The translations under genes and the position numbers were made by a program. Positions 24,246 through 46,656 of a stretch of 64,000 nt of DNA are shown here, piece after piece (the first letter of the stretch is position 1; the number at the start of each line of letters is the position of its first letter). Origin of the DNA: Escherichia phage vB_EcoM_Lh1B; sequence record OK428535.1. One strand, 5' to 3'. The notes beneath the pieces are model-generated. The model had not been told where the DNA came from. It saw nothing but the letters and a program-made list of their open reading frames with translations, and ran no database searches.

Positions 24246-24255
24246 AATACGTATT

Positions 24256-24290
24256 AGGGTGTCCATATGGACACCCTACTTATTTTTTTG
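24256..24290 (+). terminator. intrinsic terminator
   Basis: Stem AGGGTGTCC / GGACACCCT with ATAT loop followed by T-tract. Confidence 0.6.
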
Positions 24291-24307
24291 TTTAAGGAGC
24301 TATCAAA

Positions 24308-25646: not shown

Positions 25647-25701
25647 AAAATAAAAGCAAACGAGTACCCCGTAAGGGGTACTCGCGTTACTTATTTTTTT
25701 T
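25647..25701. terminator. bidirectional intrinsic terminator
   Basis: Stem GAGTACCCC / GGGGTACTC with GTAA loop, A-run before and T-run after, at a convergent junction. Confidence 0.6.
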
Positions 25702-25702
25702 G

Positions 25703-26254
25703 TTACGCTTGAGTCATGTCGGAGATGTCATAAACCAGACCGTTCAACTCAGTAACGGTGATCAGTTTACTGATATCGACACCATCGCTCGGAACTTCGG
25801 TCAAATAAACTTCAACCGTACCCGTCCACGCCAGTGACTTTCCATTGAAACGCAAATTGTGTTTCGTGGAAGACGTCATTGACTCGTTTGCGTAGATCTC
25901 CGATACGTCAATCATCCAGTTATACTTAGCCTGCAATAACGGGACAAGATCAGCAGCAGTAGATGCGCTACTACCGTCCACAGACAGCACCACGTTTTCA
26001 AACAGGTGGGCTACGTCCAATCGACGGTAAGTAAGACCCATCTTACCAAACGTACCTTTCTCAACGATACCAGAAACATCGAGACTGGTGTTCAGTCTGG
26101 TGTACTGTTCTGGGTCAGGATCGGCTGCGGTGATGTGCGACGGGTTACCGAACGACAATTTATCGATGGTCACGCCCTTACCAGTCAGTCCGGGATTCTG
26201 GGACACGATAAGATCGTAAACCAACTCTTTTGCGGTCTTTCCAAATAAACTCAT
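25703..26254 (-). CDS. hypothetical protein, likely virion-associated
   Basis: 183-aa ORF, last gene of the minus-strand block containing the giant SLT protein. Confidence 0.5.
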   Translation of the reverse strand: MSLFGKTAKELVYDLIVSQNPGLTGKGVTIDKLSFGNPSHITAADPDPEQYTRLNTSLDVSGIVEKGTFGKMGLTYRRLDVAHLFENVVLSVDGSSASTAADLVPLLQAKYNWMIDVSEIYANESMTSSTKHNLRFNGKSLAWTGTVEVYLTEVPSDGVDISKLITVTELNGLVYDISDMTQA

Positions 26255-26276
26255 AATGCGCTACCTCTGTGGTGTA

Positions 26277-28499
26277 TTATCGCGCTTGTGGTAGGAAAAT
26301 GTTCGCGATTTGTCGTGCCGGTATGATATCTAACGCGGCGTTGACGATGCTGCCCTGTGACCAGGNACTTGCCCNNTTCTNCGCCCAGATAGACGCGTTG
26401 ATTTTAGCCTGCGCGATACCGTTGGTACGCTCGTAAAGCGTGGCAGCACCCAACACAGACATAAATTCACTGAACTTGTTATCATCATCAAACACACCAA
26501 TATCAGTTACAATCGGCATGTACATAACACGCGACAGGTCGCGAATAGTTACCTGTATATCACACGACAACGGCAGACCGTCAGCACGCCACCCTAACCC
26601 ACCTGTACCAAACTGGAGACTCAAGTTAGTTACCATGGCATTACGCATGGAATAACGACCACGAGAATAACACTCCAGATAGAACGGGTGCGTAAACGAT
26701 TGTTTACCGGTTGCTAACGGGCAAACTGCCGCTAACCAGAACGACAACGGGACAATCAGATCCTGGAACACATCTAAGTCGTTACCCGACCAACAGCGAA
26801 GAGGAATGCTTAGCGAGATATCGTCACCTGAGGTGTCTGAGGAGTCCCACACTTCCGGGAAGTCAATCACTGACGAGTTGTACAGCGACATAATCCCTGA
26901 TAAATGCAAGAAATCGAGTGCGCCTGTAAAGGCGGACTTCAACCCAGTAATGAGACCATCGACTGCGTCGAAACCAGTCTTACCACCAGAGAGGTTTACT
27001 TCCAAAGAACGTGCTTTCTGTGTGGCGGAGTTAACCGTGCCAGAGATTTCAGGTTCTTTGGTGGTGTTGGAGAACGAACGCCCTACGGTATCACGTCCAT
27101 CAACACGCCAAGTAATCCACTGCGAACCATTGCGTATCTCCGAAGCGATGTTCGAAGTTAACCCATCCATAGCGCCTTCTAAAATATCGATATAGTCTTT
27201 GAAGACGCTACCGACAGATTCTTTCTGGCCTTGGTCCATCCAGTTTTCAATCTTCCCAATGTCGAGATTATTCTCATCCATTGAGTTTGCTTCGGTCTGA
27301 CTTTTAGCAACCTGAGCCTGGTTCTTTTCAACCTGTGCCATACGCTCGGCAAGCTCTTTACGTTGCGCATCACCTTCGTTTTCGAAGTTTTCAGCTTTAC
27401 CTCCTTGTGACTGAGCATCCTGAATGCTTCCGTTCATCCCTGCTACCAGTTCGTCTTCTTTGTTATCGACGTTTTCAAAACCGGCATCGTACCCTTTACC
27501 GGCTTTGGCTACGTATTCAAGGTTACGTAAAGAAACCTCGTACTGCGCAGCTTTCTCCAAATGGGTTGTTGAGTACGTCGCTTCCAGATAGAAGTTTCGC
27601 AAACGTCGAGCCATGTCCTCTTCGTTACTCGACTCTTTACGAATTTTATCGATGGTTTTCGCCTGGTAGTTGGCTAATGTTTGGTAGCGGTTAATCATTC
27701 GATAGATATCGAACTCACCATCAGCTGTCCAGATTTCTGGCAGCATGGAGTACCACTCTTTGCGGTCGCCGTTGTACTTATTAGCAGTACCGCCTTTCTC
27801 AGACCCATCTACAGCATTAGCAAGCTGGAAAGTCCCTAACACACCCGTTGGTACCAATCGGCGATAAACTAACTGGGTGTTGACCATATTCTGCACAGCG
27901 CGCAGATACAAGTGCATTGTCGGTTTCACGTAGTAGTAGCGAGAAGTCTGCTTGTTCAGCACCATCTTCAACATACGTGGTGTAATTAGAATAACCGCAA
28001 AGGCAACCGTACCTACCGCGGCCCATATTGCTGCGGCGGCAACATACGTCCCCATCGCACGTAACATACCTGGGTAGTCACCTGTGCGCGCCAGATACGC
28101 TAGGTTGGAATCGTACATATTCGCGAAGAATGCAGCGACCCCGATATATCGAGGTTTACCGAAACGACAATGAAGATAAAAACTGTTTTGGTTAATAGCT
28201 TCGTAATAGAAAGTACCTAGACGATAGGAACCACGTTGGTCTTGACCTTTAACGTACTTTGAGTACGAGCCACGACCTGCATCAGGTTGTGCAAAAGCAC
28301 CTGTTGAACTCGGATCAGCAAACATCGTAAACTGCGGCGGCGCATTTAACGCTTGCGAACCACCCATCGTGGTATCTTCAAACGAGAGCATCGCGTTAGA
28401 GTAACGACGCAAACCCAGGAAACGCTCATCGCGTTGTGCGGTTGTACCGCCAAACAGGCCGGTTACCCANCCNNAATCTTTTAGTTGTCTTGCTTCCAT
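26277..28499 (-). CDS. large membrane-associated protein, probable virion/ejection protein
   Basis: About 740 aa from in-frame ATG at 28497-28499 with GAGAGG RBS (ORF track uses a GTG at 28538); hydrophobic segment TYVAAAAIWAAVGTVAFAVILI and a charged coiled-coil-like middle. Confidence 0.6.
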   Translation of the reverse strand: MEARQLKDXXWVTGLFGGTTAQRDERFLGLRRYSNAMLSFEDTTMGGSQALNAPPQFTMFADPSSTGAFAQPDAGRGSYSKYVKGQDQRGSYRLGTFYYEAINQNSFYLHCRFGKPRYIGVAAFFANMYDSNLAYLARTGDYPGMLRAMGTYVAAAAIWAAVGTVAFAVILITPRMLKMVLNKQTSRYYYVKPTMHLYLRAVQNMVNTQLVYRRLVPTGVLGTFQLANAVDGSEKGGTANKYNGDRKEWYSMLPEIWTADGEFDIYRMINRYQTLANYQAKTIDKIRKESSNEEDMARRLRNFYLEATYSTTHLEKAAQYEVSLRNLEYVAKAGKGYDAGFENVDNKEDELVAGMNGSIQDAQSQGGKAENFENEGDAQRKELAERMAQVEKNQAQVAKSQTEANSMDENNLDIGKIENWMDQGQKESVGSVFKDYIDILEGAMDGLTSNIASEIRNGSQWITWRVDGRDTVGRSFSNTTKEPEISGTVNSATQKARSLEVNLSGGKTGFDAVDGLITGLKSAFTGALDFLHLSGIMSLYNSSVIDFPEVWDSSDTSGDDISLSIPLRCWSGNDLDVFQDLIVPLSFWLAAVCPLATGKQSFTHPFYLECYSRGRYSMRNAMVTNLSLQFGTGGLGWRADGLPLSCDIQVTIRDLSRVMYMPIVTDIGVFDDDNKFSEFMSVLGAATLYERTNGIAQAKINASIWAXXXASXWSQGSIVNAALDIIPARQIANIFLPQAR

Positions 28500-28547
28500 G
28501 TAAAACCTCTCTGTAAGATGATTAGGGGGTGTTGCCACCCCCTACGA

Positions 28548-31500
28548 TTAGCTTGCTTTCCGACTTACGTTTAACGACGGTGTCGGTTGGGTTATTTCCT
28601 GCCTACGTGCAGCTGAGCCCGGAGGAGGCACATTTGCCGCTTGCTGGATACTACCACCCCGTGTGTCGTTTGCCGCTCTTGGATTTGATTTCAAAATATC
28701 ACGAATCTCTTTCAAGTAATCGCGAGACTGAATCAGTACCTTGAGCTGCTGAACATCTATCGGGTCACCATTCAGCGTTGGCGTCGATGCTGTAGCATCA
28801 GAAGTTGGGGCGGCAATTGGACGAGCTGCTGCGTTAACCTGCGCTTCCGCGCCTGCTTTCACTTTAGCAACATCCGTCNCAGACAATCCTTCTGCTGCAG
28901 CTTGCGACGCTACGGTTTCGGCCGTTGTTGAGGCATCGGATGTTCCGGTACCGCCTGTGGTTGGNGTAGGTGCTGCTGGTCCTACATTACCTGCGGCGGT
29001 AGCCATTGCATCTTGTGCCGCCATGGCCCCTTTCTGCGTCAATGCGTCATCACGACGATTAGCATTATCTGCTGGCAGGTTATCTGCNGGCGACAGACTC
29101 GGGTCATTAGCGGCCGGTGCACCCATTGCCGCTGCCGGGTTAGTTGGTGAATTAGGCGACAATCCTGCAACCATATCCTTCGTCTTGCTCGGAACGGCAG
29201 CGACTTCGTTGGCGGAAATTGCGCCCATGCGGCGGTTCAGTTCCTGAATAACCCCGTCTACGCTACGTATACGACCGTTGCTGTAGAAGACGTTGGCATT
29301 CCCTCTCAGTATTGCGGATGTAATCCCAGGAGCACTCGATGCCGCCATATTCGGATTACGCTTCCATGCTTCCAGGAATTTCTTACCGCCGCCTGCACCC
29401 AGGAAGTGGTACAGATAAGCCACGGCTGGNGGNGGTGCTTTACCACCCAGGTCACGTTGTGCTTTTTGGATGTTGTCACGAATGAACTGTACACCCAAAA
29501 TANCATNCNCCCNCGGGNCCNTCTGGTTAACACGCGGAANACCNAACTTCCNCGAANACCCCTTCATCATCCCGTCCCACGNGCCGTTAACAAACTGGAA
29601 CAACCCAGATGCCGAAGCATACGGGTTTTTAGCGGTGTAGTTAAATCCGGACTCCNCCTTAGCCATTGCTAACGCCACTGCAGGTGGCACGCCCATCATG
29701 TTCGCTGCATCGGTAATCAATGCTTTGATATTCGGAACGTTCAACGCACCCTTTCTACCCAACATTTCTATCGGGTATTTTTCAGCCAGTGACTTATAAT
29801 CACCGTCTTTCACTTCACTCAGGTTAATCGAAGACGAACCAGTGGTCATTGCAGCGTAGTTCCGCACACCGCCAACCGCATCGACGACTTGACCCAAGTT
29901 ACCCGGCACACCACCACTCGTACCCGATGGAATGTAGCCTGAGGCGCGAGCACCGTCAGATGACAAAGAATCTCCCGAACTGATGTTCGAGTCTTCTTCA
30001 TCTTCACCGGTAACTTCCAGAGAACTGCGGTTCTTGTTACGATCCTTCCAGCGTGCACGCTTGCCATTATTTTTAATGGCTTTAATCATGTTACGCACGG
30101 CAAGGTCAGCTTCTTTTGACAACAGCTTCAGCGTTTCCAGCTCGGCTTTGATAGACGATGGGTTCGTGTTAGCATCGCCCCCTAGTGGGTTGATGTTCAC
30201 TTCCCACACCGACTGTCTTATACCGCCTTTCAGGCTGTAGGCAGTTGACATCATCAGACTGATTTCGTACAGGTAGCCGCCGGTCAGTTTCAAGTTCAGC
30301 GGATCGGCTGTTGGCAGGTAACGCTTCACCCCAACCAAATACGTCATGAATACCGGTAAGAAGCGGTCAAAGAACCACCGTTTCAAACGATCTTCTTTCG
30401 GTGTGCCGATAGCGTCTGGAACCATCGAGGCGATGGCTTTCTTCCAGTCACCTTTATAGCTTGCGGTTTTCACGTCGATGTCTTTGATGACGTTCTTCTC
30501 GAATACCGTAATCAACGTGCGTGTGGCGTTGTCGATGGTGGTAAAACCATAAGTCTTCCAACGCACCGACTCCATCGCATTCATGTCTTTCTGGTCGAGC
30601 ACCGCGTTCCAGTCTACCTGAATCTGAACCTGCTCTGTTCCGTCTTCCCAACCTTCTACCTTCGCCAGATTTTTATTACGTTCGTTATCCAACTGTCCAA
30701 GTTTGTTGATAGCTTCATCAACACCCGCGGACTTAATCCCCTCCACGGCCGGTGCCATTCCGTACTTACGNGCTTTCTTATCGTCCATTCTGAACTTGAT
30801 TGCACNCNCGACTTCATTCTGCACTTCCATAACCTCTTCACCGCTCAAAAACTCCTTCGGTGTAAAGGTTACAACGTCCCAGGCTTTCGAGAAGAAGCCT
30901 TGGTTGACTTTGCGTGGGTCTGTTAACGAAGAGAACGCTTTTGCATCCTTAGTCATCTTCATTTTGTTGAAGAGTGTCTGCATGTCCTCTTTCGATACTT
31001 TCTTAGCATCGCCGACGTCAGCCAACTGGATACTATTCGGCATTGATTTCAGTGCCGNAATCCAGCGGAGATAAATCGGAATAAAGCGCTGAAGCATAAA
31101 CGCTTGGAAGGCCAACATCTCGCCTTTTTCCTCGACGTTAATACCGAACCCTTCAGCTAACTTCTGAACGTCTTTTCCACCTAGCCCACGGAGACTGGCT
31201 TGGCCATCTTCCGCGTAAGACACATACTCACGCAATGCGTCTTCTAAGTAACGCGCTTTCGCCCCGTCATCCGACGACCACTTATCGTAATCACGGAAAC
31301 CGTACTGAGCTAAACGCATCTTATCCAGGTACTGGGTATAGGTAGTCGTTGCGATCTTGTACNCGGCGTAACCNNCCNCGGNGNNCNCNCCACCGATAAG
31401 AATTGCCGGCCAACCCACCGCAGTCACGACGGCAGAGGCCCCGGTTCCCACNNCGGNCACCNCGGGTGCCNCCAAACGGGTTACTGCGAACTTACCAACA

Positions 31501-34500
31501 TTCCACGCAGCCTTACCTAAAAGACCTACGGGTTTTAACACACCCCATTTCGTGATAGAACCGAGTATATTACCCACAGTTCCCAAGATACTGACGATGG
31601 GGCCGATGATAGGTAAGCCTTTCACCATATCCCACAGACCGCCAGATTTCCCTTTGGAGCCCTGCNCTTTCTCTTTCTTCNCCTTNCNTTTCNCACNCCA
31701 ACNTTTGAAGAAGTTAAAGTAGTCGCGTTTTTCATCACCTTCAGGCGGCTTGTTACGTTTACCGAACTTCGCAAACATGGTACGAATAATACCATCGTCG
31801 CCACCTGCACGGGATACTGATTCGCGCATGGTGTTAAACCACGACATCTCTTGCAAGCCAATCATTCGGTCCAAGCGTTCGAATAACCTTGCACCTGCTG
31901 ACTTGGCGGCATTCTTCCCTTTGTTGATAACCCTCCCTGCTGCATCACGGGCGGTCTCAAGGTCTTCCTTCGCATCGCCGTAGACTTTACGGCCAGAAAG
32001 GCCACCTTTCGCGTTCAAATGGCTGCGATAAAACTCAGCAACATCGTCATCGCGTCCAGCCAACCGACGTTCAACTTCGTAACGTGTAGCAATGTCGTGT
32101 CGTGCTCCACGATATCCATCGAGCATATCCCCAGCCCGGCCTCGGAAACCACTGAACCAACCNCGCAGGCNGTCGCGTCCACGACCAAAGAACGCTTTTG
32201 TTCTTGACCAACGTCCACCAAAACGTTCAGACAATGACGATTTCGCACGATCATACGCCCCGCGTACTGCACGACCGATCGTACTACCGCCACCCCCGAC
32301 GCCCTTCTCCATTTCCTCTGTCCAACTTTCGTCTTCCGGATCTCCCGGTAAACGTTGGTTCAACAGTTTATAGATACGGATAAGGATGTGGTTGGTTTTC
32401 TTGCCGGTTGATGAGAAGAGACTGAAACCACCACCCCCACCATCTTTACGGCCTTTCCACCAACGCGTCAGTGGGTTGTCGGTAANCATGTCTTTCAGAC
32501 GATCGACACCACGTTTCGCAAAACCGAGCACTTTACCCGGTAAGCTCGTTACACGGTTGAACGCTTTCTGGAGACGTGTCTTTTCTTCGCCTTCCGGAAT
32601 CTCGTTCAGCCAGTCCTTAATCTTACCAACGATGCTGCCTGCTTTCGGTGACAGGAAATCCAGGAACCGCTTCGGTAGCTTAGCCACCTTATTAAAGCCT
32701 AAGCCAATCTTACTGGCCAGACCTTGGGTCAGTGCTTGGATTTTCCCGCCTTTATAGTAGCGGAGTTTACCCGCAGCGGCTAAGTCAGCGGCTGCTAATA
32801 CCAGATTACCTGCGGAGTCAACAATATCACTCCCCAGTTTGATGTCGTCCAGCGTTTTCAGCTGAACCATTTTACCATCAATGACCTGATAGTATTCTCC
32901 AGCTTCCAGACGTGCACCTTGCAGAACAACGTTACCGTGGTCATCGTAAACATCGCGGATACCCAGTAGTCCTTTACCGAAGGAACTTACCGCTTCAAAA
33001 CCACCACGGACACTACCACTGATAAGGCCACGCATCCGGGTTAAGAAACCAGGACCTTCGCCACCTCCCATGCCTGCGACTTTACCGCGTGCCCAACCAC
33101 CGAACTGGTTCAGTTTATTCCAGGCACCCTTAACACCACGTTTCGCAAAGCCGCCGATTCCTGCTGCGGTGTCGAACAANACACCGCCCCAACGACGAAT
33201 AAGCCCATCCTCACCGATGATAATACGACGGCGTCTACCGCCACCGCTACCACCACCAGGGCGAGGCGGACCCATTTCTTCATCACCAGAACCAGCACCC
33301 CCTGCTAACGAAGCCAGAAGAACCCCTTCTTCGTCCATACTTCTGACGTGTTCCAGAATTTTCTGGAGGGTGTCACTGTTGTTGTTACCACGAATCGCTT
33401 CGATGATACCGTCAAAGTTATTCCGTGGTGCTTCTTCGCCGCGGTTACGTTGACTCAACAATTCAACAAAGTTAGTCGAGGTTTTACCGTAGAGAACTGC
33501 GGCTAACTGCCGAGGCGACATTCCGCGGCCTTTACCACCGCCACGTAAANCNGGNGGTAACGACGTGTCATCGGCACCACCACTTGCCCCTTGGTTCATT
33601 CGGCGCAGATAGTCGCCTAACGCCGAACCATTTTGCAGCTTACGTTGAATCTCCTGGTCACGAGTCAATGCGCGCCCGCTGCGTGTCTTACCCATCGCCA
33701 AGTCATTAAACAAGGTATAGGGATCGGACAGGTCTTTATCCACGCCGAAGGTGTCACTCTTCGCGTCGTAGTTAAAGATACCCGCATCACGCAACGCTCG
33801 CTCGCCGTAAATATTCACCGCCTCGTCGATAATTGCCTGACGTTGGGTGATAGATGACTGCACTGTGGAGATTTTGCGAGCCAGTTCGTTACTTAATTCG
33901 TTGCTACCACCGAGTAAGCTGTCTGAATGCCCCTGTAACGCTTCCTTAATGCGTTCTGCGGCGTTTCCTGGCATATACCGATGAAGATGCATCGGGTCTT
34001 TCAGAATCGCTTCTACGTCGAATGCGCGGCCCTGCGAGGCACGTGACTCGATATAGTCGGCAAGATGCTGTCGATCCTTCTGCGAGAGCGTTTTGCCACG
34101 GTCAACAAAATCCACAGTGCTGTTAATGGAATTTTGGAGACGCAGGCGCTGCTCATCGTTTGCAACCGCTTTGCGTACACGGTTACCGACCACTTTGCGG
34201 TCTACGAAACCACGACTGGTGATGTCGTATTCCAGATCGGCATGTTCGCCATAGCCACGACGAACAGATTTGTTAATCTCTGCCAGCCAGGCAGGAATAA
34301 CTTCAACCAGGCTAAGATACGCTTTACGGTCAAACTTCGCCGAACGACTTAACGTTTCGCCATTACGCTCATCGAGGAAGGCTTTCTCACGGTTTAACGG
34401 TTGGACAATACCGAGTTCATTCAGTACCCGGAACAAATCCGCCAACGGTCCTTGTGTTTCGCCTGCGATAGCTGAGTTCGAGATAGAGGAAAGATTACCA

Positions 34501-35522
34501 AAGGTGAACGCGCCCTTCTGCAGGCGTTTCATGACCTCTGGATTTTTCTCCATCTCCTCACGAGTCCATTTCTGGAGTTTCTCGATTTGTGGGCCGAGTA
34601 GTTTCTTCGCAAGGAATCCGCTACCCCATGCAGTTGCTTTATCGCGAGCATTTGTTTTGCGACGTTCGGCAGTCAACGAAGAGCTGTCGCTCATGCCGAA
34701 ATCGTCTTCAACACCCATGCCGAGAACAGACTCTAACAAACCACGACCTTCGCCAAATATACCAGAAATTTTCTTCTTGGTATTTTCGCGAATCATGTCC
34801 ATAAACCCGTCAGCATAACGCAANGGGTTCATCCATTCCGCAGCCTGGCGTTTAACGTTTGCCCAACGGACTTCTGAGAAATCTTCCTTCGCGTAGTCTG
34901 GCAGCGCCGTGTTCTTCACGATGGCTTCTAAAGCAGGCGTGTTACGATCGAACTCCGACTGCTTCATCTTCACGATGTCTTGAATGGCGAACAGGGTACG
35001 GTATTGCAATTCGAGTTTCTTACGCTCGATGTTTAAGAATACCCCACGGCTTAACCCGGTTAGCAGGTTAATGTCTTTCGCCATCCCAATCATGGTTTGG
35101 TGCATTGCATCCGCGCGCATCTCTTTGATGCTGTCGCGGAGCTTATCCTCTACCATGCGGTCCTGCAGTTGACGTTGTTCGTCGGCGTCCTTTGGCACGC
35201 CTGAGAAAACGTCGCCCAGTTCACGATCCATCAATGCCTGATTAGGATCGTAATTTTGGTAATCCAACTGGTCAGATTTTGACCACTTGTCGATGCGCTT
35301 AGTAACTGCATCCGGCAAGTATTTCTTCATCGTCGGACCGAGTTGGCGCGCTTGCATCTTCAGCGTGCGCTCGGTCTTCTCAAGCTCCCCTTTCGTATGG
35401 GCGTAAATGTCCTTTGCTGCAGCTGCCGCTGACTGATAACCCTCGTATGCATCAGCTGCCGGCTTAGGCATCCCCTTGAGGATAACTTGGTCGCGTTTCC
35501 CTTCTGGCCAGATAGTTGACAT
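28548..35522 (-). CDS. giant virion protein with lytic transglycosylase (SLT) domain
   Basis: About 2,324 aa from ATG at 35520-35522 (AGGAAG RBS); SLT signature AVALAMAK-x-ESGFNYTAKNPYASASGLFQF at about 29550-29700; Gly-rich linkers, hydrophobic segments and Ala/Pro-rich C-terminal tail. Confidence 0.8.
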   Translation of the reverse strand: MSTIWPEGKRDQVILKGMPKPAADAYEGYQSAAAAAKDIYAHTKGELEKTERTLKMQARQLGPTMKKYLPDAVTKRIDKWSKSDQLDYQNYDPNQALMDRELGDVFSGVPKDADEQRQLQDRMVEDKLRDSIKEMRADAMHQTMIGMAKDINLLTGLSRGVFLNIERKKLELQYRTLFAIQDIVKMKQSEFDRNTPALEAIVKNTALPDYAKEDFSEVRWANVKRQAAEWMNXLRYADGFMDMIRENTKKKISGIFGEGRGLLESVLGMGVEDDFGMSDSSSLTAERRKTNARDKATAWGSGFLAKKLLGPQIEKLQKWTREEMEKNPEVMKRLQKGAFTFGNLSSISNSAIAGETQGPLADLFRVLNELGIVQPLNREKAFLDERNGETLSRSAKFDRKAYLSLVEVIPAWLAEINKSVRRGYGEHADLEYDITSRGFVDRKVVGNRVRKAVANDEQRLRLQNSINSTVDFVDRGKTLSQKDRQHLADYIESRASQGRAFDVEAILKDPMHLHRYMPGNAAERIKEALQGHSDSLLGGSNELSNELARKISTVQSSITQRQAIIDEAVNIYGERALRDAGIFNYDAKSDTFGVDKDLSDPYTLFNDLAMGKTRSGRALTRDQEIQRKLQNGSALGDYLRRMNQGASGGADDTSLXXXLRGGGKGRGMSPRQLAAVLYGKTSTNFVELLSQRNRGEEAPRNNFDGIIEAIRGNNNSDTLQKILEHVRSMDEEGVLLASLAGGAGSGDEEMGPPRPGGGSGGGRRRRIIIGEDGLIRRWGGXLFDTAAGIGGFAKRGVKGAWNKLNQFGGWARGKVAGMGGGEGPGFLTRMRGLISGSVRGGFEAVSSFGKGLLGIRDVYDDHGNVVLQGARLEAGEYYQVIDGKMVQLKTLDDIKLGSDIVDSAGNLVLAAADLAAAGKLRYYKGGKIQALTQGLASKIGLGFNKVAKLPKRFLDFLSPKAGSIVGKIKDWLNEIPEGEEKTRLQKAFNRVTSLPGKVLGFAKRGVDRLKDMXTDNPLTRWWKGRKDGGGGGFSLFSSTGKKTNHILIRIYKLLNQRLPGDPEDESWTEEMEKGVGGGGSTIGRAVRGAYDRAKSSLSERFGGRWSRTKAFFGRGRDXLXGWFSGFRGRAGDMLDGYRGARHDIATRYEVERRLAGRDDDVAEFYRSHLNAKGGLSGRKVYGDAKEDLETARDAAGRVINKGKNAAKSAGARLFERLDRMIGLQEMSWFNTMRESVSRAGGDDGIIRTMFAKFGKRNKPPEGDEKRDYFNFFKXWXXKXKXKKEKXQGSKGKSGGLWDMVKGLPIIGPIVSILGTVGNILGSITKWGVLKPVGLLGKAAWNVGKFAVTRLXAPXVXXVGTGASAVVTAVGWPAILIGXXXXXXGYAXYKIATTTYTQYLDKMRLAQYGFRDYDKWSSDDGAKARYLEDALREYVSYAEDGQASLRGLGGKDVQKLAEGFGINVEEKGEMLAFQAFMLQRFIPIYLRWIXALKSMPNSIQLADVGDAKKVSKEDMQTLFNKMKMTKDAKAFSSLTDPRKVNQGFFSKAWDVVTFTPKEFLSGEEVMEVQNEVXXAIKFRMDDKKXRKYGMAPAVEGIKSAGVDEAINKLGQLDNERNKNLAKVEGWEDGTEQVQIQVDWNAVLDQKDMNAMESVRWKTYGFTTIDNATRTLITVFEKNVIKDIDVKTASYKGDWKKAIASMVPDAIGTPKEDRLKRWFFDRFLPVFMTYLVGVKRYLPTADPLNLKLTGGYLYEISLMMSTAYSLKGGIRQSVWEVNINPLGGDANTNPSSIKAELETLKLLSKEADLAVRNMIKAIKNNGKRARWKDRNKNRSSLEVTGEDEEDSNISSGDSLSSDGARASGYIPSGTSGGVPGNLGQVVDAVGGVRNYAAMTTGSSSINLSEVKDGDYKSLAEKYPIEMLGRKGALNVPNIKALITDAANMMGVPPAVALAMAKXESGFNYTAKNPYASASGLFQFVNGXWDGMMKGXSXKXGXPRVNQXXPXXXXILGVQFIRDNIQKAQRDLGGKAXXPAVAYLYHFLGAGGGKKFLEAWKRNPNMAASSAPGITSAILRGNANVFYSNGRIRSVDGVIQELNRRMGAISANEVAAVPSKTKDMVAGLSPNSPTNPAAAMGAPAANDPSLSXADNLPADNANRRDDALTQKGAMAAQDAMATAAGNVGPAAPXPTTGGTGTSDASTTAETVASQAAAEGLSXTDVAKVKAGAEAQVNAAARPIAAPTSDATASTPTLNGDPIDVQQLKVLIQSRDYLKEIRDILKSNPRAANDTRGGSIQQAANVPPPGSAARRQEITQPTPSLNVSRKAS

Positions 35523-35698
35523 CGCCGACTTCCTGGCAACATTCAGGGTACTGAGTATCGGGCTTCGTTTTTTCTCGTCTTTGGGACGGGGNGGTTCNCC
35601 NAAANCNTCCCANTCGTCGANTNTATCTAAATCNATATCATCNAAACCNTCTTTNCCTCTTTTTGCCNTAANNTTTNTTCCAATTNAGGAGNTTAAAA

Positions 35699-37312
35699 AT
35701 GACAAAGCTAAAATGGGTTNACTTTTACTTGTTAAACNNCAACAAGTCCCTGGTGTCGCATTTAAAACCAGTTACAACAACAGACACCTTTCAGGGACTG
35801 ACGAAAAACTTTCACCCTGAAGGACTGTATTCAACCGAAATTTTTGGCCTCACAGGGAGCGAAGCACGAGACTCAACGTTCTCGTACATTGATATCAAAC
35901 TGGATATCATTTCGCCGACCGTTTGTTTGGCATTGTTCCAGCTGAAACAGCTGTACGAAGAAATCTGTTCCGGGAAGCGATTCGCTATCTGGAATGAGAA
36001 AGAAAAAGATTTCGAGCCGGCTCTGCCCAGTGATAAAGGTGCAGACACCGGCTTCAACTTCTTCCTACGCTACTACGAACAACTGACACCGGGACGCAAC
36101 GAATCGATGCGTCGCGACGAGACAGTCGATTTCTTCAATAAGTTCCGTCCGGTCAGTCTCAGCCGCTATGTGCTGGTTCTGCCTGCGGGATTACGTGATT
36201 TGGTCATTCGTCAGGATGGCCGCGACCAAGAAGAAGAGATTGGCGGACTCTACCGTCGTCTGATTTCTCTGGCGCGTGCAATCCCCGACCGCAGTACGCG
36301 AACGGAACTGACTGACCCGGTTCGCTGGAAGCTCCAACAAACCTTTAATGATATCTGGATGTACTTCTTCAACATCCAGGATGGTAAAGGTGGTTTTGCA
36401 CGTCGTAAAGTGACGTCACGTAAGTTAATGAACGGTACGCGTAACGTACTGTCTTCATTCTCAACCGGTTCCAAGGTCATGGGTCGCGAAGATGCGATTC
36501 GTCCAACGGATACCCGTATCGGTTTGTACCAAACCCTGAAGGCATTACTGCCTGTGGCTCAATACCACATCCGTGAACGTTACCTCAGTAACATCCGGGC
36601 AGGGGACGGCAACTTATACGGCGTTAACACCAAAACACTCAAGCGTGAGTTCCTGGAAGTCTCCGGGCGGGTGTATGACCTTTTCACTACCGACGATGGC
36701 ATCGAAACACTCATCAACAGAATGGAAGCGCGCGAGCTTCGACATAAACCGCTGATGATTGATCCGGACCATTACGTGGCATTAATCTACCAGGACAAAC
36801 GCAGCTTCAAAATCTTTTACGATATTGAAGACCTGCCGGAAGGACGTGACCGCAAGCTTGTCCGCGGACTGAGCTTAGCAGAACTCCTCTATTTGTCAGG
36901 TTACGATATTTGGAATGACTACTTCTCGTTCATCACGCGTTATCCGGTTACGGGACGCGGTTCGACTTACTCCTCGACCATAAGATTGGAGACCACCACC
37001 TCTTCCCTCTATTTGCATGAACTGGAAGACGATTGGGNCACGTTAAAAGANAAGGGNGCAATTNGNTTCCCTGACCGTACCGTGAAAACNTTTGTGGAAT
37101 CCATGGCACCACATCCANCCCNATTAGGGGGNTTGGGNGGNGACNACGANGGNGACACCGGCNCANCAAANAGCCCGATGTCAACCGAAGCGCTCGNGGA
37201 AAATCGGAAGTGGGTCAGTTCGAAAAACTACTGGTTTGCAACAGACGGCAGTTTCAAAATCAATCCGGTTAACAACGTGATTAAAAGAACGACTGCTGCG
37301 CTGTTGAAATGA
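35699..37312 (+). CDS. RNA polymerase beta-prime-like subunit, N-terminal-half homologue
   Basis: 537 aa; ordered blocks VLVLPAGLRDLV, GGLYRRLI, GKGGFARRKVTSRKLMNGTRNVL, ITRYPVTGRGS, K.AI.FP and GGD-x-[D/E]-GDTG (37142..37156) match beta-prime lid/rudder/DPBB/catalytic-loop blocks; AGGAG RBS. Confidence 0.6.
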   Translation: MTKLKWVXFYLLNXNKSLVSHLKPVTTTDTFQGLTKNFHPEGLYSTEIFGLTGSEARDSTFSYIDIKLDIISPTVCLALFQLKQLYEEICSGKRFAIWNEKEKDFEPALPSDKGADTGFNFFLRYYEQLTPGRNESMRRDETVDFFNKFRPVSLSRYVLVLPAGLRDLVIRQDGRDQEEEIGGLYRRLISLARAIPDRSTRTELTDPVRWKLQQTFNDIWMYFFNIQDGKGGFARRKVTSRKLMNGTRNVLSSFSTGSKVMGREDAIRPTDTRIGLYQTLKALLPVAQYHIRERYLSNIRAGDGNLYGVNTKTLKREFLEVSGRVYDLFTTDDGIETLINRMEARELRHKPLMIDPDHYVALIYQDKRSFKIFYDIEDLPEGRDRKLVRGLSLAELLYLSGYDIWNDYFSFITRYPVTGRGSTYSSTIRLETTTSSLYLHELEDDWXTLKXKXAIXFPDRTVKXFVESMAPHPXXLGXLXXDXXXDTGXXXSPMSTEALXENRKWVSSKNYWFATDGSFKINPVNNVIKRTTAALLK

Positions 37313-37330
37313 TACCCATAAGGCACATGT

Positions 37331-40300
37331 ATGATTTTTCTGAAACAGTTTAACCAGCGCTTTACCGTGCGCAAGACCGATGAGTTCGGTCGTCCGCGTA
37401 TTATCCCGCTGGAGAAGCTCCAGCTCCCACGTGGTTCTATCTACCACACCATCGATTTAGACCAGGTGGTTTTAGCACCACCGTTAACTACACCGTNTTT
37501 TGNCCNGGTGGAAAAACCGGCGATGATTCGCCACCACTTCCAGCTGCCTGAAGACGGCATTATTGGCCACCCGCGTAAGAAACCGGTTGTTGGCCAAGAA
37601 CGTCAAATCTTCCAGTACCATCGTAACAATCGTCGTATTCGTCGCATGATTGAAGACGGCGTGGTACGTTCCGATCCGAAAGTGCTGCTCATCGAAAACT
37701 ACACCCCGATGCTGCCGCATTATTTCTACCCTGATACTCTGATGTCCTGGTACGAACGTCTGCACAACATTCAGCTGCTGATAACTAACCAGATGAAAAC
37801 TGACTCACGTGAGTACATGCGTCAGAACTACTACATCATCGAACTGGGTAACGTACTGCCTTCTTTCGATCGTTTTAAAATGACGTATAACGATCGTGTT
37901 AAAACCAAACTGGAGCGCTTTAAAGACTTTAACCTGCTGTGGTTACTGGAGTTGTTCGGTTGGGTGTACGGCGATCAGCAAGCAACACTGTTTGACGGTA
38001 TGGACATGAACCAGCTGTCACGTGTGAACTTTATCTTCACACACAACGGTGGTTTTACATCCATGAACATGGGTGTAATTGAAAGAATGCGTAAGTCTGC
38101 CGGTGGTCGTTTGACTGACGTGCAGATGGGCAGAATGTTCTACCGTACACTGACTACTGTGATGACCACACCGCCGTCTACCGACTACGAAGATGACGAG
38201 TTCGTTACACCGGAAGGGGATGAACGCGTACATCTGGGAGAGGACGACGATGCTGTTGAAACCGTTGCCAGTAAACCGGAAGAAAGCCTCGATATCGTCG
38301 ACGATGAAGCAACACAAAGCGACAACGTTGACGATACATTGAACGATCATGAGTTCGATGAGAAAGAAGATCTGGTCATCGAAGCGCCGAAAGAAGATGT
38401 CAAACCAACCACCATCGTCGTAGAACGCACCATCCCACACGATGCTGTGATTAAACAAGAAGTTGAGCGCCTGGCNGAAGCGGGCCGCGTCACCGCCAAA
38501 GCGTATCAGTTCCTGAACGAATCTTCTAAACGTTTCGTAAACTTACCCAACCCGTACAATCCTAAAGAGACGTACGGCGAAGGTCTGACCATCGATCCGA
38601 AGAAACTCGAAGTTAAAGCCGAGCCTAAGAAGATTGAACGCTTAGTTACGGATGAAGCCTGGGCGGAAAATACCACCGACCAAATCATTCGTCAGTACAA
38701 CCAGGAAATCTTCCCGAAAGATATTCTGGGGGCAGTAGCGTCATCTCAGCGTCTCGGTTTGGCGATTCACAATCACACTGTTNAGAAAGAGATTTCCGTT
38801 ACCGGGAATATCGAACACCACACGTTGCGTATTCAGCCGATTGGCGGAGAACCAACCACGGTACGTTTCTCAATTCCTGCATTAACCGAAGACGGTACTT
38901 GGGTTGCGAATGGTGTGGAATATACAATGCGTCGTCAGCGTGTTGATCTTCCCATCCGTAAAGTGTCCCACGATACTGTAGCGTTAACCACTGCCTACGG
39001 GAAGAACTTTGTCCGTCGCAGTGATAAAGTCGTCAATGATTACGGACGTTGGCTCACTAACGCGATTATTACTCGCGCGGTCGATCCAAAGAACACCGAA
39101 ATCACTGATGCAAAACTGGCGAATGTGTTCGATCCGCTGTCTAAACTGCCGCGTCAGTACACCGAGGTGGCACGTCGTGTAGCAGCATTCAACGCAATTG
39201 GGTACCAATGGAACTTTGACATTAAACAGAAAGCGGCATTCTTTAACGAAGGGCAACTGGCAGATGCGGACCGTGTCGAGCTGGTACCTGTGGCGAAGAA
39301 ACCGCGGAGTCATGTCATCGTCGGTATGGATAAAAACTCCCAGCTTTATCGAGTGGATAAGGATAAGACCGAACCACTGGGTACACTCGCCGAGGTCTTT
39401 GGCGTGGACACCTCTAAGGCTCCACGTGAAATGACCGAACTGTCACTGATGGGCAAATCAATCTCGCTGGGCTTTGTGTTTGCGTACTATCTCGGATTAA
39501 CCGGGATGTTGAAACACTTTGGTATCAGTTACGAGGTTCTCTCTGTCGGACAACGTATCGATAAAGGTCAGTTCGACTCCATTATTCGTCTCCAGGATGC
39601 GAAAATTGCAATTGTCTGCGAGAACGATCAACAGAGGATGATTGTCAACGGCTTAGACCGTTACATTAAACACTTTACCACGTATACCGAGTCGGAAGTT
39701 GACCGGGAAGACATTTACCTGAACCTGTTACGTGATGCAGATGGGCTAACACCACGCTACATCAAAGAGCTGAAACTGATGCGGACCGCATTTGTTGACG
39801 ACATGCACGCGCGTATCCTCAGGAAAATGGGCGAGCCGGNAACCTTTATCGGCTTACTGGAGCGTTCTAACGAACTGCTGCAGACGGACCACACGTTACC
39901 GGAAATTAACGGTGACGAAATGATGTTCATCGGGAACCAACGTATTTCGTATCACATCTACACCGCGATGGTGCGGGCGATGCGTAACTACAACAACGCG
40001 CCTAACTCGAATCGTAAGTTTGAGTTGACGCAGGACATGGTCTGGGGTGCAATTAACTCCGACCCGTCTGTTCTACTGGCTCCTGGTGCAAACCCGGTAC
40101 AGAACATCAAAGAAAAAGATGTTGTTACCATGGGCGGTACAGGTGGTCGTAACCGCAAGACCATGGTCTACAGTACCCGTGAATTCCAACCGAGCGACCT
40201 GGGGATTGTCTCCGGTAACACGGTCGATAACGGCGATGTAGGTATCACCGCCTTTGCAACAAACAATCCGCGTTACGACACCGTGGACGGCACGACCTTT

Positions 40301-41536
40301 AAAAAGGACCTCGATAAACTGAAGCCAGGTGAGGCACTGTCATTTATTGATGGCTTGGTGCCGGATACCCTGATGGACGATGCTAAGCGTCAGAACTTCG
40401 TTGGGATTCAATTCGGTTCTGCGACCAGTTGTGTTGGCGCAACCACCACACCGTATCGTACCGAGCAAGAAAAGTTCGTGGCACACCGTACTTCTGTGAA
40501 GCACGCACGCGTAATCGATAAACCTGGCAAGATTGTGGAGGTTCTTAACGACCACGTTAAAATCAAATACGACGACGGAGAGGAAGAAGCTTTCCCACTG
40601 GGCCGTTGGTTCGGTCCGCACGAAGGGACTTACTACCCACACACCCTGGTAACGAAATGGAAGCGCGGAGATAAACTCCCTGCCGGTGCCGTTATCACGT
40701 ACAACGAACAACACTTTGAACCAGACATCTACGATCCAACGCAGGTCAGTTTTAAAAACGGGATACTGGCAACTGTCGCTTTGATTGAAGGGGAAGAAGT
40801 AATTGAGGACTCCAACGCCATTAGTGAGCGGTTCGCTGCTAAGGCTGAAGCCGATGTTACCAAACTCAAAGAAGTCACAATGACGTTTACCCAGAACCTG
40901 TTGGAGATGGTAAAAGAAGGGGACCACGTAGACGTGGATTCAATTCTATGCACCTTCACCGACAACCTGACCGGCGATATGAGCGGGTTCAGTAAAGAAG
41001 CAGCGGAAACGCTGCGTGAGTTAAGCTCCTTTGCACCACGCTCTGGTGTTCGTGGGTTTATCGACAAAATCGAAGTGGTTTACCACGGCGAGGTGGAAGA
41101 TATGACCCCGTCTTTGGCGGAGATGGTTCGTAAATACGACCGTATACGTCGGAAGACTGCGCTGGCTCTCAAACGTGACGAGCCGAAGGATGGTCGAGTC
41201 AACGGTGATTTTCGTGTTGAGGGGGTGCCGTTAGCGTACAATAGCCTGTGTGTCCGATTCTACATCACACACCGGGTAGAGATGGCAGCAGCGGATAAGA
41301 TGGTTATTGCTAACCAGCTGAAAACGACGGTTCAGGAAGTGATGTATGGAACCAACAAAACGGAAGACGGGCAGGAACTCGACATTATCTTTGGTCGTGA
41401 TTCCGTCGACGCACGTATCGTAGGTTCTATCATGCGCATCGGAACCACCAACGCTGTCGGGTATCGTGGTGGGGAGAATATCGGACGCATCTTAGATGGT
41501 GAAGACGTCCCAGCCTTGCCGGCTAAAATCAACTAA
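37331..41536 (+). CDS. large protein, possible partner RNAP subunit (unconfirmed)
   Basis: 1,401-aa ORF in the same frame as the upstream gene, separated by TGA and TAA; only weak RNAP-like blocks (GAVASSQRLG, VVTMGGTGGRNRKTMV); acidic low-complexity insert. Confidence 0.55.
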   Translation: MIFLKQFNQRFTVRKTDEFGRPRIIPLEKLQLPRGSIYHTIDLDQVVLAPPLTTPXFXXVEKPAMIRHHFQLPEDGIIGHPRKKPVVGQERQIFQYHRNNRRIRRMIEDGVVRSDPKVLLIENYTPMLPHYFYPDTLMSWYERLHNIQLLITNQMKTDSREYMRQNYYIIELGNVLPSFDRFKMTYNDRVKTKLERFKDFNLLWLLELFGWVYGDQQATLFDGMDMNQLSRVNFIFTHNGGFTSMNMGVIERMRKSAGGRLTDVQMGRMFYRTLTTVMTTPPSTDYEDDEFVTPEGDERVHLGEDDDAVETVASKPEESLDIVDDEATQSDNVDDTLNDHEFDEKEDLVIEAPKEDVKPTTIVVERTIPHDAVIKQEVERLXEAGRVTAKAYQFLNESSKRFVNLPNPYNPKETYGEGLTIDPKKLEVKAEPKKIERLVTDEAWAENTTDQIIRQYNQEIFPKDILGAVASSQRLGLAIHNHTVXKEISVTGNIEHHTLRIQPIGGEPTTVRFSIPALTEDGTWVANGVEYTMRRQRVDLPIRKVSHDTVALTTAYGKNFVRRSDKVVNDYGRWLTNAIITRAVDPKNTEITDAKLANVFDPLSKLPRQYTEVARRVAAFNAIGYQWNFDIKQKAAFFNEGQLADADRVELVPVAKKPRSHVIVGMDKNSQLYRVDKDKTEPLGTLAEVFGVDTSKAPREMTELSLMGKSISLGFVFAYYLGLTGMLKHFGISYEVLSVGQRIDKGQFDSIIRLQDAKIAIVCENDQQRMIVNGLDRYIKHFTTYTESEVDREDIYLNLLRDADGLTPRYIKELKLMRTAFVDDMHARILRKMGEPXTFIGLLERSNELLQTDHTLPEINGDEMMFIGNQRISYHIYTAMVRAMRNYNNAPNSNRKFELTQDMVWGAINSDPSVLLAPGANPVQNIKEKDVVTMGGTGGRNRKTMVYSTREFQPSDLGIVSGNTVDNGDVGITAFATNNPRYDTVDGTTFKKDLDKLKPGEALSFIDGLVPDTLMDDAKRQNFVGIQFGSATSCVGATTTPYRTEQEKFVAHRTSVKHARVIDKPGKIVEVLNDHVKIKYDDGEEEAFPLGRWFGPHEGTYYPHTLVTKWKRGDKLPAGAVITYNEQHFEPDIYDPTQVSFKNGILATVALIEGEEVIEDSNAISERFAAKAEADVTKLKEVTMTFTQNLLEMVKEGDHVDVDSILCTFTDNLTGDMSGFSKEAAETLRELSSFAPRSGVRGFIDKIEVVYHGEVEDMTPSLAEMVRKYDRIRRKTALALKRDEPKDGRVNGDFRVEGVPLAYNSLCVRFYITHRVEMAAADKMVIANQLKTTVQEVMYGTNKTEDGQELDIIFGRDSVDARIVGSIMRIGTTNAVGYRGGENIGRILDGEDVPALPAKIN

Positions 41537-41583
41537 TGTAGGGCGGGTCGCTCCCGCCCGGTAAATAAACTCCGGAGTTAATA

Positions 41584-41877
41584 ATGGGAATTTTAGATAC
41601 GCTCAAGCAGCAGCATGGGATTCCGGTGGGTCGTAATAGCACGAATCCGGAAACGGAAGGTTATTCCCCACAGCAACGCATGAACTTTGTTGTTCTGGGC
41701 AATGCGGTTGAATTGGCCACCGAAATTATTCACGGACTGCTGAAGGGCAGCAATGGCCTGTCTGACCGCATGGGCGATCAGCGTTTGCTGAAACGAGACA
41801 TCGCTGATATGGTGGGTGCGCGTATTACTGGTCGCATCCAGGATTCTATCAGCACCAAAAACGGGGGTCAGGCATGA
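41584..41877 (+). CDS. hypothetical protein
   Basis: 97-aa ORF. Confidence 0.45.
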   Translation: MGILDTLKQQHGIPVGRNSTNPETEGYSPQQRMNFVVLGNAVELATEIIHGLLKGSNGLSDRMGDQRLLKRDIADMVGARITGRIQDSISTKNGGQA

Positions 41878-43358: not shown

Positions 43359-44087
43359 GTGGTCATGAGCGCCATTGAAACAGCACGTCGTGACGCGACG
43401 AAAATTCATGCAGATTTAGTGGACCAAGGCACGGCCACCATCACCAAAGGGGGATGTTACATTTACATCCCTGTTGGCTTCGTGGCTAAAGAGCTGGCGG
43501 TAATTTCTTCGCAAGTCGAAATCGTCGGCATTTTCGCTATCTCCACTGACCGCAAAACCTACGGGGTATCGAACGTCACGACGTTCATTGAAATTACCCC
43601 GTCGGCGTTTGAGGAAATTGACGTTCAGGGTGTGCCGTATTACGAGTTCCGTTTTGACCCCGGCACGGTGGTGTTCCCCAACCGAATGCTGCAAGTGCTA
43701 TCCTCGCCAGTCTACAACATCGCTTCGTACATCTACGACTTCGGAAACCGGCCTTTCTGGTACACCGCAGTAGATGACGCTGAGCTATTGTCTGACACTA
43801 AGACGTGGAACGGCTTTACGGTCTTTAACGACCAGATCACCGCTGACTGTTATGCTGCCCACACACAGCGTAAGGTTGGCGACCCGCGGACGTATTTCCG
43901 CTACACCCTGAAAAAAGACAGCGATTTGATGAATCGGGTGCAGTTTATTCCGCTGCGTTCAGGTTCATTGAACAAAACTTCCCGGTTGGCCAAGATTGCA
44001 GATGTGGAACTGAAACAGGGTATCCGTTCTGCACTCCAGGTCGATCCGGTACGTGCAGAGCCACTCGAGGATTTGTATATGAGGTAA
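43359..44087 (+). CDS. hypothetical protein
   Basis: 242-aa ORF with GAGAGG RBS. Confidence 0.55.
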   Translation: MVMSAIETARRDATKIHADLVDQGTATITKGGCYIYIPVGFVAKELAVISSQVEIVGIFAISTDRKTYGVSNVTTFIEITPSAFEEIDVQGVPYYEFRFDPGTVVFPNRMLQVLSSPVYNIASYIYDFGNRPFWYTAVDDAELLSDTKTWNGFTVFNDQITADCYAAHTQRKVGDPRTYFRYTLKKDSDLMNRVQFIPLRSGSLNKTSRLAKIADVELKQGIRSALQVDPVRAEPLEDLYMR

Positions 44088-46543: not shown

Positions 46544-46552
46544 GCTCTACTA

Positions 46553-46596
46553 GGCTCATCCTATCTTCGGATACGGGTGAGCCTTTTTATTTTATT
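46553..46596 (+). terminator. intrinsic terminator
   Basis: Long hairpin GGCTCATCC-TATC-TTCG-GATA-C-GGGTGAGCC followed by TTTTTATTTTATT. Confidence 0.6.
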
Positions 46597-46606
46597 AATT
46601 GCATTC

Positions 46607-46634: not shown

Positions 46635-46656
46635 GTGAGCGTTACACGTTAACGCT

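Follow-up and report, generated by a model that had tools for sequence, protein, structure and literature searches.

In phages related to phiKZ, a virion RNA polymerase (vRNAP) transcribes the early genes from AT-rich promoters, and a non-virion RNA polymerase (RNAP) transcribes the middle and late genes (reviewed in PMC7598289). Each phiKZ virion carries about 10 vRNAP molecules, the subunits are described as middle-gene products, and labelled phiKZ gp180 is taken up into virions and is seen, together with the injected DNA, inside cells that have just been infected (Antonova et al. 2023, PMC10612078). In the jumbo phage SPN3US, gp241 is an essential gene, and particle analyses cover a gp241 amber mutant and a gp64 mutant that lacks tails (Thomas et al. 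2016, PMC5105663); assembly of all five vRNAP subunits has to precede the entry of any one into the prohead (Ali et al. 2017, PMC5694885). In Goslar (Chimalliviridae), all five vRNAP subunits were detected in virions, including gp205, gp207 and gp210, which lie near gp203 (bioRxiv 10.64898/2026.04.21.720040). Here we compare with these systems the segment 25703-41536 of a 64,000-nucleotide stretch of Escherichia phage vB_EcoM_Lh1B (sequence record OK428535.1; the whole stretch is referred to as the window). In this segment, leftward genes for a giant SLT-domain protein and two further proteins stand head-to-head with two rightward genes for RNAP-like proteins.

A preliminary description, made from the sequence alone, had suggested from this gene order that the RNAP may be packaged in the virion and ejected with the DNA. 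We found that the packaging interpretation is supported by published experiments on orthologous proteins rather than by gene order. Packaging has been established experimentally for orthologues that are 97-99% identical (SPN3US) and ejection for phiKZ gp180, and both are in that sense already known.

Comparison of the locus with SPN3US, phiKZ and Goslar

The DNA of the window was 97-99% identical to that of Seoulvirus (SPN3US-like) Salmonella jumbo phages, with 98.7% identity to SPFM4 and 97.4% to SPN3US. Pairwise BLASTP and the SPN3US annotations gave one-to-one orthology with SPN3US for gp237 to gp241, at 92-99% amino acid identity, and gp242 to gp245 were 96-100% identical. Three minus-strand open reading frames (ORFs; 25703-26254, 26277-28499 or 28538, and a giant one that extends from 28548) oppose two plus-strand ORFs (35699-37312 and 37331-41536), and their lengths together with homologues at E = 0 are far beyond chance. 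This map agrees with the gene set first described, namely a giant SLT protein, a protein of ~740 residues and one of 183 residues on the minus strand and RNAP-like proteins on the plus strand. From the orientation of the genes, we infer that transcription diverges from the junction. The segment is almost certainly the gp237-gp241 segment of a SPN3US-like (Seoulvirus, phiKZ-related) jumbo phage, and the junction is the point at which a leftward tail/baseplate unit meets a rightward head unit.

SPN3US has the same gene order, the same orientation and the same 29-bp spacer between the two units (35670-35698 in the window, as placed by alignment to SPN3US and other relatives). The differences from SPN3US are at strain level only: the start codon of gp240, residue 50 of gp239, the divergence of gp237, the bases given as N in the window, and a 307-residue ORF. 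The gp240 start is ATG in the window (MTKLKW) and GTG in SPN3US and SPFM4 (VRKLNW), while residue 50 of gp239 is Met in the window and Leu in both relatives. At 92% identity to SPN3US, gp237 is the most diverged of the five proteins.

The same head-to-head junction is found in phiKZ, where gp178 and gp180 (the N-terminal part of beta') face the giant SLT protein gp181, followed by the spacer-ring protein gp182. The head cluster downstream is also the same, with gp177, gp176 (equivalent to gp244) and the protease gp175 (equivalent to gp245). For phiKZ, the structure of gp182 has been solved, and the packaging and injection of the polymerase have been shown. Yet amino acid identity is only 20-35%, the spacer is 75 bp instead of 29 bp, and gp179 lies between the two RNAP genes. 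Moreover, phiKZ gp180 stops a little short of where SPN3US gp240 has its DxDGD motif (residue 482). The phiKZ gene after gp182 showed no detectable homology to gp237, and the DUF7941 proteins of phiKZ are gp126, gp127 and gp143. In Goslar, the tail tube initiator complex protein gp203 is a homologue of gp238; this phage is distant, with a gp241 that is ~28% identical, and its layout is read from gene numbering.

Virion RNA polymerase genes

The gp240 orthologue (35699-37312, plus strand, 537 residues) and the gp241 orthologue (37331-41536, plus strand, 1401 residues) correspond to the N-terminal part of vRNAP beta' and the major N-terminal fragment of vRNAP beta, and are 97.2% and 98.6% identical to their SPN3US counterparts. 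Their PHROG families, 2986 and 3148, respectively, are annotated "RNA polymerase beta subunit". When a profile of 33 gp240 sequences was compared with Escherichia coli RpoC by hhalign, the two aligned with a probability of 91% and an E value of 1e-6; profile columns 148-263 fell on RpoC 218-357, the "LPPDLRP...DLNDLYRR...GKQGRFRQNLLGKR" region. A 30-sequence gp241 profile aligned in the same way with E. coli RpoB 515-1107 (probability 84%, E = 7e-6), and the active-site GDK...KG elements were matched, with "VGDKgVfxNQmKTV" placed on RpoB "GDKMAGRHGNKGV". The gp241 protein bears a phage-specific N-terminal extension. The consensus of the gp240 family over 33 homologues is GADFDGD, and SPN3US gp240 reads GGDYDGD at residues 482-488. 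The window reads GGDXXGD owing to two Ns; this is consistent with the Mg2+-binding (N)ADFDGD motif of the beta' double-psi beta-barrel, although it is not fully readable. The best phiKZ matches were gp180 for gp240 (33% identity, E = 9e-76) and gp178 for gp241 (29% identity over the full length, E = 0), both of which are annotated as structural head proteins.

The evidence for packaging comes from the mass spectrometry of SPN3US particles. Spectral counts here and below are those of Table S4 of PMC5105663, given for am11 (sup+/sup-) and then for am27 (sup+/sup-). They were 14/0 and 56/38 for gp240, and 110/0 and 203/152 for gp241, and hence both proteins are present in virions and in tailless heads. 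Particles of the gp241 amber mutant were devoid of gp240, gp42, gp218 and gp244 as well as gp241 (PMC5105663). Virion proteomics, which had been proposed as a way to check the packaging idea, is thus already published for SPN3US, with gp240 and gp241 found in virions and heads and gp237-gp239 found in virions. Together with the injection of phiKZ gp180, these data bear out a packaged and ejected RNAP of the phiKZ kind, and they contradict the outcome that would have spoken against it (RNAP-like proteins absent from virions and expressed only early). By orthology, the data support gp240 and gp241 as probable packaged and injected vRNAP subunits in this phage too, both their presence in the virion and their ejection being carried over from the orthologues.

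The window holds four of the five vRNAP genes. In addition to gp240 and gp241, it contains the orthologue of gp244 (43365-44087, plus strand; 99.6% identical to SPN3US gp244 and 31% to phiKZ gp176), which is the fifth vRNAP subunit and the C-terminal part of beta' (reviewed in PMC7598289). It also contains the orthologue of gp218, the C-terminal fragment of vRNAP beta (13122-13790, plus strand; 220/222 residues identical to SPN3US gp218). Since gp218 lies 22 kb from the block and gp42 lies outside the region analysed, the vRNAP genes are dispersed.

The preliminary description had compared the system to N4, crAss-like and phiKZ-like phages alike. The comparison holds for the phiKZ kind, with its split multisubunit beta and beta', while N4 and the crAss-like phages are analogous in strategy only. 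In N4 and the crAss-like phages, the RNAP travels inside the capsid and is delivered along with the DNA, making early transcription host-independent. However, the N4 enzyme is one giant single-subunit T7-like polymerase and that of the crAss-like phages is one giant protein, whereas here beta and beta' are split over five polypeptides. The gp240 and gp241 proteins are beta'- and beta-like fragments, and no single-subunit RNAP family occurred among the Pfam and PHROG matches; the enzyme is not a member of the N4 or crAss-like families.

Leftward tail and baseplate genes

In the SPN3US data, the products of the three leftward genes were detected in virions and were absent from tailless particles. 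The counts were 5/6 and 100/0 for gp239, 32/29 and 55/0 for gp238, and 40/32 and 32/0 for gp237 (PMC5105663 Table S4). Because of their absence from tailless particles, these proteins are tail or baseplate parts and not head ejection proteins.

The gp239 orthologue (28548-35669, minus strand, 2373 residues) is 97.1% identical to SPN3US gp239 over 2372 residues and belongs to PHROG 3201. It is similar to phiKZ gp181 in three collinear segments. The SLT domain seen in the giant protein from the start is real: it lies near the C-terminus (29073-29825), scores above the Pfam cut-off (PF01464, 23.9 bits against 21.3), and matches the phiKZ gp144 lytic transglycosylase (3bkh) with an E value of 7e-13. 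The catalytic Glu-Ser pair is kept in the alignment of "AMAKxESGFNY" with "TFASIESAFDY". The protein is a carrier of a family 23 lytic transglycosylase domain and is predicted to degrade murein. Such activity was shown for phiKZ gp181, according to a review that cites Briers 2008; gp181 is a known structural peptidoglycan hydrolase, and this older review places it in the cell-puncturing device (PMC5380687). Hydrophobic, Gly-rich segments occur at residues 1351-1425 of gp239, and no full-protein homologue was found among PDB sequences. The SPN3US authors name gp239 the tape measure protein (PMC5105663, PMC5694885), and its gene is followed by that of the baseplate spacer, gp238.

The gp238 orthologue (26277-28499, minus strand, 740 residues; a GTG extension is possible to 28538, giving 753 residues) is 98.8% identical to SPN3US gp238, which is essential and tail-associated (PMC5105663). 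It matched two chains of solved structure, phiKZ gp182 (9xqs_K, E = 2e-62; E = 1e-39 by blastp) and Goslar gp203, the "tail tube initiator complex" protein (11lx_H, E = 1e-57). These proteins form the spacer, that is, the second tube-initiator ring between the hub and the tail tube (PMC13250141; bioRxiv 10.64898/2026.04.21.720040). The hydrophobic helix reported earlier in this protein was also found; it is the single strongly hydrophobic helix, TYVAAAAIWAAVGTVAFAVILITPRML, at residues 164-190 of the 753-residue ORF.

The gp237 orthologue (25703-26254, minus strand, 183 residues) is a DUF7941 virion protein (PF25613, E = 2.3e-26, 93.3 bits with a gathering score of 27) and belongs to PHROG 2935, virion structural protein. 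The match covers positions 1-178 of the 276 in the profile; therefore, the C-terminal part of the DUF7941 model is unmatched. In the 2026 Goslar preprint, DUF7941 proteins are abundant virion components, the family is proposed to form filaments on the peripheral baseplate, and gp23 does not have the C-terminal globular domain found in gp22, a truncation comparable to that of gp237 (bioRxiv 10.64898/2026.04.21.720040). We predict that gp237 is a member of this peripheral baseplate or fibre-cloud family.

In T4, gp29 is the tape measure, gp5 is the cell-puncturing lysozyme, and gp48 and gp54 are tube initiators. These are functional analogues of gp239 (tail-associated, predicted to cut murein, and tape-measure-like) and of gp238 (a hub-to-tube ring). 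The difference is that the murein hydrolase of the jumbo phages lies in a protein of >2000 residues and not in the spike, and no sequence similarity of gp239 or gp238 to T4 proteins was found. The solved baseplates of phiKZ and Goslar are described as resembling that of T4 (PMC13250141; bioRxiv 10.64898/2026.04.21.720040).

Conservation of the head-to-head layout

We scanned IMG/VR viral contigs with the gp240/gp180 alignment and obtained 80 loci at 34-100% identity, 78 of which had enough upstream sequence. A gp239 homologue lay upstream on the opposite strand in all of these (78/78), and was immediately adjacent in 77. Most loci that retained enough flank also had gp238 beyond gp239, and gp241, gp244 and gp245 downstream. 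The spacer measured 12-32 bp in the SPN3US/Erwinia clade and was mostly <100 bp elsewhere, as it is at the phiKZ gp180-gp181 junction (75 bp); in Vibrio phage Aphrodite1, where the layout is the same, the spacer is 22 bp. The gp239 homologues ranged in length from 1930 to 3277 residues. The layout was not seen around the gp241-like genes of Staphylococcus S6 and Bacillus Goe21, uracil-DNA-type jumbo phages for which the RNAP set of those genes is not established.

Conservation in 78/78 loci, phiKZ and Aphrodite1 marks the adjacency as a stable border where tail and head modules meet, and is not in itself evidence of packaging. The head-to-head placement is ancient conserved synteny rather than evidence for a dedicated "ejection plus transcription" operon. 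The earlier reasoning from adjacency to the SLT giant does not carry its conclusion, given the dispersal of the other vRNAP genes and the tail and baseplate nature of the leftward products.

Two features of individual loci were also recorded. The sole locus without direct adjacency, L069 (IMGVR_UViG_3300008643_000001), has ~2.8 kb between the gp239 and gp240 homologues. In loci L019, L020, L023, L026, L043, L047, L050, L056 and L074-L082, the gp241 homologue is split into 2-3 ORFs that are ~0.3-1.9 kb apart, and some of these loci also have an insert between gp240 and gp241. The split homologues fit introns or homing-endonuclease insertions; gp241 of the window is uninterrupted.

Promoters and transcription units at the junction

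The 29-bp spacer carries both ribosome-binding sites, GGAA for gp239 and AGGAG for gp240. These sites fill the spacer and leave no space for two conventional promoters, so each unit must have its promoter or transcription start within the partner gene's coding sequence or directly beside it, and at least a portion of either promoter must extend into the opposite gene. This raises the question of whether the adjacency is functional, with co-regulation of the gene for the tail lysin/tape-measure protein and that for vRNAP beta' through one compact bidirectional promoter region or through obligatorily overlapping antisense 5' ends, in which case the enzyme for entry and the injected polymerase would be produced in step; this would be a corrected form of the block proposed in the preliminary description. 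The invariance of the junction and the shortness of the spacer in the whole SPN3US/Erwinia clade are in keeping with such regulation. So is the rank of the spacer in the window, where it is the shortest of six divergent spacers, the other five measuring 57-98 bp. Very compact promoters are also feasible, because the phiKZ late promoter is just a TATG motif at the start site (PMC7598289). On the other hand, no conserved TATG or other motif was visible in the aligned spacers of 20 relatives, and the literature on relatives yielded no start-site data for the junction; the 201phi2-1 paper has no transcription start data for a junction of the gp239/gp240 type. The products differ in virion location (tail and head) and in spectral counts. 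Co-location is not needed for stoichiometry, since the other vRNAP genes are scattered, with gp218 22 kb away. Furthermore, vertical inheritance of the core genome would by itself lead one to expect conserved synteny. On balance, we consider co-regulation unlikely, although it is the most credible of the alternatives to simple synteny. A slightly less probable, specific form is that the promoters of the two units lie inside each other's coding sequence, so that overlapping antisense 5' ends would couple or mutually limit the expression of the tail lysin and of the injected RNAP. We did not find this arrangement described for these phages in the literature.

Computational searches for promoters were of limited help. 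A sigma-70 scan returned 12 sites where 17.5 were expected, with none at the junction, and is uninformative, as would be expected of a phage that does not rely on the host RNAP. An AT-rich near-palindrome, AGATATTATCTA, had 10 matches with up to 2 mismatches, compared with 2.9 expected, and 0/100 shuffles reached 10. The matches include 6427-6438, 10312-10323, 14965-14976 and 48175-48186. Two exact copies are intergenic, the matches at 6427 and 14965 lie between genes, and looser AT-rich variants occur in the gaps 46544-46689 and 61502-61573. We regard AGATATTATCTA as a candidate early-promoter or operator motif. It is absent from the 29-bp spacer and from the surroundings of 35.5 kb, which fits, weakly, with the gp239 and gp240 genes not being early.

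A strong terminator-like bidirectional hairpin was found at 25660-25685, where the convergent genes gp236 and gp237 leave a gap. It has an 11-bp stem with 7 G-C pairs and folding energies of -25.0 and -20.5 kcal/mol on the two strands (z = -6.0 and -4.8), and from its sequence it likely ends the leftward tail transcription unit. A second, G+C-rich hairpin, with no T-run, lies on the minus strand at 28525-28542, just after the gp239 stop codon (-18.1 kcal/mol, z = -5.3; 0/200 shuffles were as stable). It may act as an attenuator or as an RNA-stabilising element. The G+C-rich hairpin after gp241 (41541-41559) was not significant against shuffles. Similar G+C-rich hairpins occur in many same-strand gaps of the window, for example at 3355-3442, 19215-19272, 24246-24307 and 57664-57707.

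The start codon of gp239

The preliminary description had drawn an intergenic region of ~175 bp (35523-35698), which was mostly coding in our analysis. The annotated start of gp239 in SPN3US aligns to window positions 35669-35667, where the middle base, 35668, is N and hides the start. The plus strand there reads CNT, and SPN3US and SPFM4 both have CAT, the base that gives ATG. The 49 codons upstream of 35522 are in frame, stop-free and conserved at the protein level: the Erwinia phages phiEaH2 and Asesino share 75% of gp239 residues 1-150, Cronobacter phage CR5 still shares 53% of residues 25-150, and residues 14-267 align with phiKZ gp181 residues 26-297. In all of 20 relatives, the protein begins M-A-K-(K/R), with synonymous differences between them.

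It is very improbable that 35523-35698 is a 175-bp non-coding control region and that translation of the giant protein begins with the ATG at 35522, as first drawn. The window does read CAT at 35520-35522 (minus strand ATG), and with the Ns no intact ATG is visible upstream. However, this codon is TTG (Leu) in SPN3US and SPFM4, and the 49 codons before it are open and conserved as far as CR5 and, in part, phiKZ gp181. The start annotated in all relatives aligns to 35669, with only its middle base an N, and the M-A-K-K beginning is conserved through synonymous substitutions. Based on the alignment of the start, the TTG in relatives and the conserved upstream codons, we conclude that the true gp239 gene extends over 28548-35669 (2373 residues), leaving a spacer of 29 bp.

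The Ns themselves were considered as evidence on this point. Had they marked polymorphic or wobble sites, they would have argued that 35523-35669 is coding. This was rejected: over 25703-41536, 3/102 N sites differ between SPFM4 and SPN3US, which equals the background rate, and their distribution over codon positions 1, 2 and 3 (27/32/38) shows no bias. The Ns look like plain base-call ambiguity. They number 247 across the window, scattered singly in ~50 clusters; 21 of the Ns are within 35592-35739, and further N-containing stretches include 31363-31703 and 37038-37197. Among the positions that they mask are the start codon of gp239 and, in the catalytic motif of gp240, two residues.

Weighing of the assignment

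The least probable alternative is that gp240 and gp241 belong to the non-virion RNAP, made early, staying in the cell and transcribing late genes: phages of this group do carry two sets of beta/beta' fragments (PMC7598289) and the product names ("RNA polymerase beta subunit 4/5") leave the set unspecified, but the orthologues detected in SPN3US virions and heads are 97-99% identical, the best phiKZ matches, gp180 and gp178, are head-annotated and have been shown to be vRNAP subunits, and the genes, like gp244 and the prohead protease gene, form part of a conserved head cluster. Published SPN3US proteomics refutes this identity.

We found no evidence that contradicts the assignment of gp240 and gp241 to the packaged vRNAP and of gp237-gp239 to the tail, and the points that weigh against it are limits. 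All functional data come from orthologues, in SPN3US (97-99% identical) and in phiKZ (~30% identical), not from this phage. Searches of Pfam (E up to 10), NCBIfam and PDB sequences returned nothing useful for gp240 or gp241, and they are identified as RNAP proteins from profile comparison, motifs and literature. Because of the Ns, the intactness of the gp239 start codon and of the gp240 DxDGD motif is assumed from relatives. Finally, it is the SPN3US authors who assigned gp239 its tape-measure role, and gp181 is absent from the text of the 2026 phiKZ structural atlas (PMC13250141).

Neighbouring genes and related records

The rightward head and ejection cluster continues beyond gp241 with the orthologues of gp242 and gp243 (41584-43349, plus strand; 100% and 96% identical to SPN3US). 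Both proteins are present in tailless SPN3US heads (PMC5105663), and gp243 is required for loading the abundant ejection proteins (PMC5694885). After gp244 comes the orthologue of gp245 (44150-44953, plus strand), a prohead protease by its RefSeq annotation, with identities of 100% to SPN3US gp245 and 35% to phiKZ gp175. It marks the right-hand cluster as a head-assembly module.

An extra ORF of 307 residues (9167-10090, plus strand; insert region 9099-10141) lies between the orthologues of gp213 and gp214. SPN3US is without it and has a gap of only 62 bp at this place. The ORF was present in 2/33 related phage records (EC001 and JN03), had no Pfam match, and falls in PHROG 6160 (function unknown). 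It is an accessory gene of variable occurrence.

The record of SPFM20, LR535917.1 (L084, 30118-33358), proved to be scrambled. Its consecutive 60-nt blocks match the window in reversed order with orientation kept, as if the lines of a sequence file had been reversed without complementing. About 10 other SPFM records showed the same fragmented match, in 35-38 pieces. Gene calls in these scrambled records are therefore unreliable.

Discussion

The preliminary description of this locus is partly confirmed: the genes, their orientation, the SLT domain and the hydrophobic helix were right, while the size of the intergenic region and the start of the giant gene were wrong. The feature as such is already known and matters little beyond correct annotation.

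From the experiments on relatives, the following course of events may be proposed for this phage. Both units would be expressed in the middle or late phase by the non-virion RNAP, as may be expected from phiKZ, where the vRNAP subunits are middle-gene products. The rightward unit would start with gp240 (beta' N-terminal) and gp241 (beta N-terminal) and continue with gp242, gp243, gp244 and the prohead protease gp245. If the proteomics of SPN3US amber mutants applies here, gp240, gp241, gp42, gp218 and gp244 would come together in the cytoplasm, and the resulting complex would depend on gp241 for its entry into the prohead. On infection, the tail would contract and the SLT domain of gp239 would cut the peptidoglycan locally; the activity is known for phiKZ gp181, and a role in entry is presumed. 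The DNA would then pass into the cell with the head ejection proteins, including ~10 vRNAP complexes, as injection is known for phiKZ gp180. Once inside, the vRNAP would transcribe the early genes from AT-rich promoters without host RNAP, as is known for phiKZ and AR9.

The practical gains are a corrected start for the giant gene (35669, not 35522) and a spacer of 29 bp. The three leftward genes also gain updated structural roles, as a tape-measure-like lysin, a baseplate spacer ring and a DUF7941 protein, and the head-to-head junction is a very stable synteny marker for this group of phages. If the promoters of the two divergent units do overlap across the 29-bp spacer, the expression of the tail lysin and of the injected RNAP may be coupled or mutually limited at the junction. 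The packaged multisubunit RNAP lets phiKZ-like phages run early transcription without the host enzyme, as established for phiKZ and for the near-identical proteins of SPN3US.

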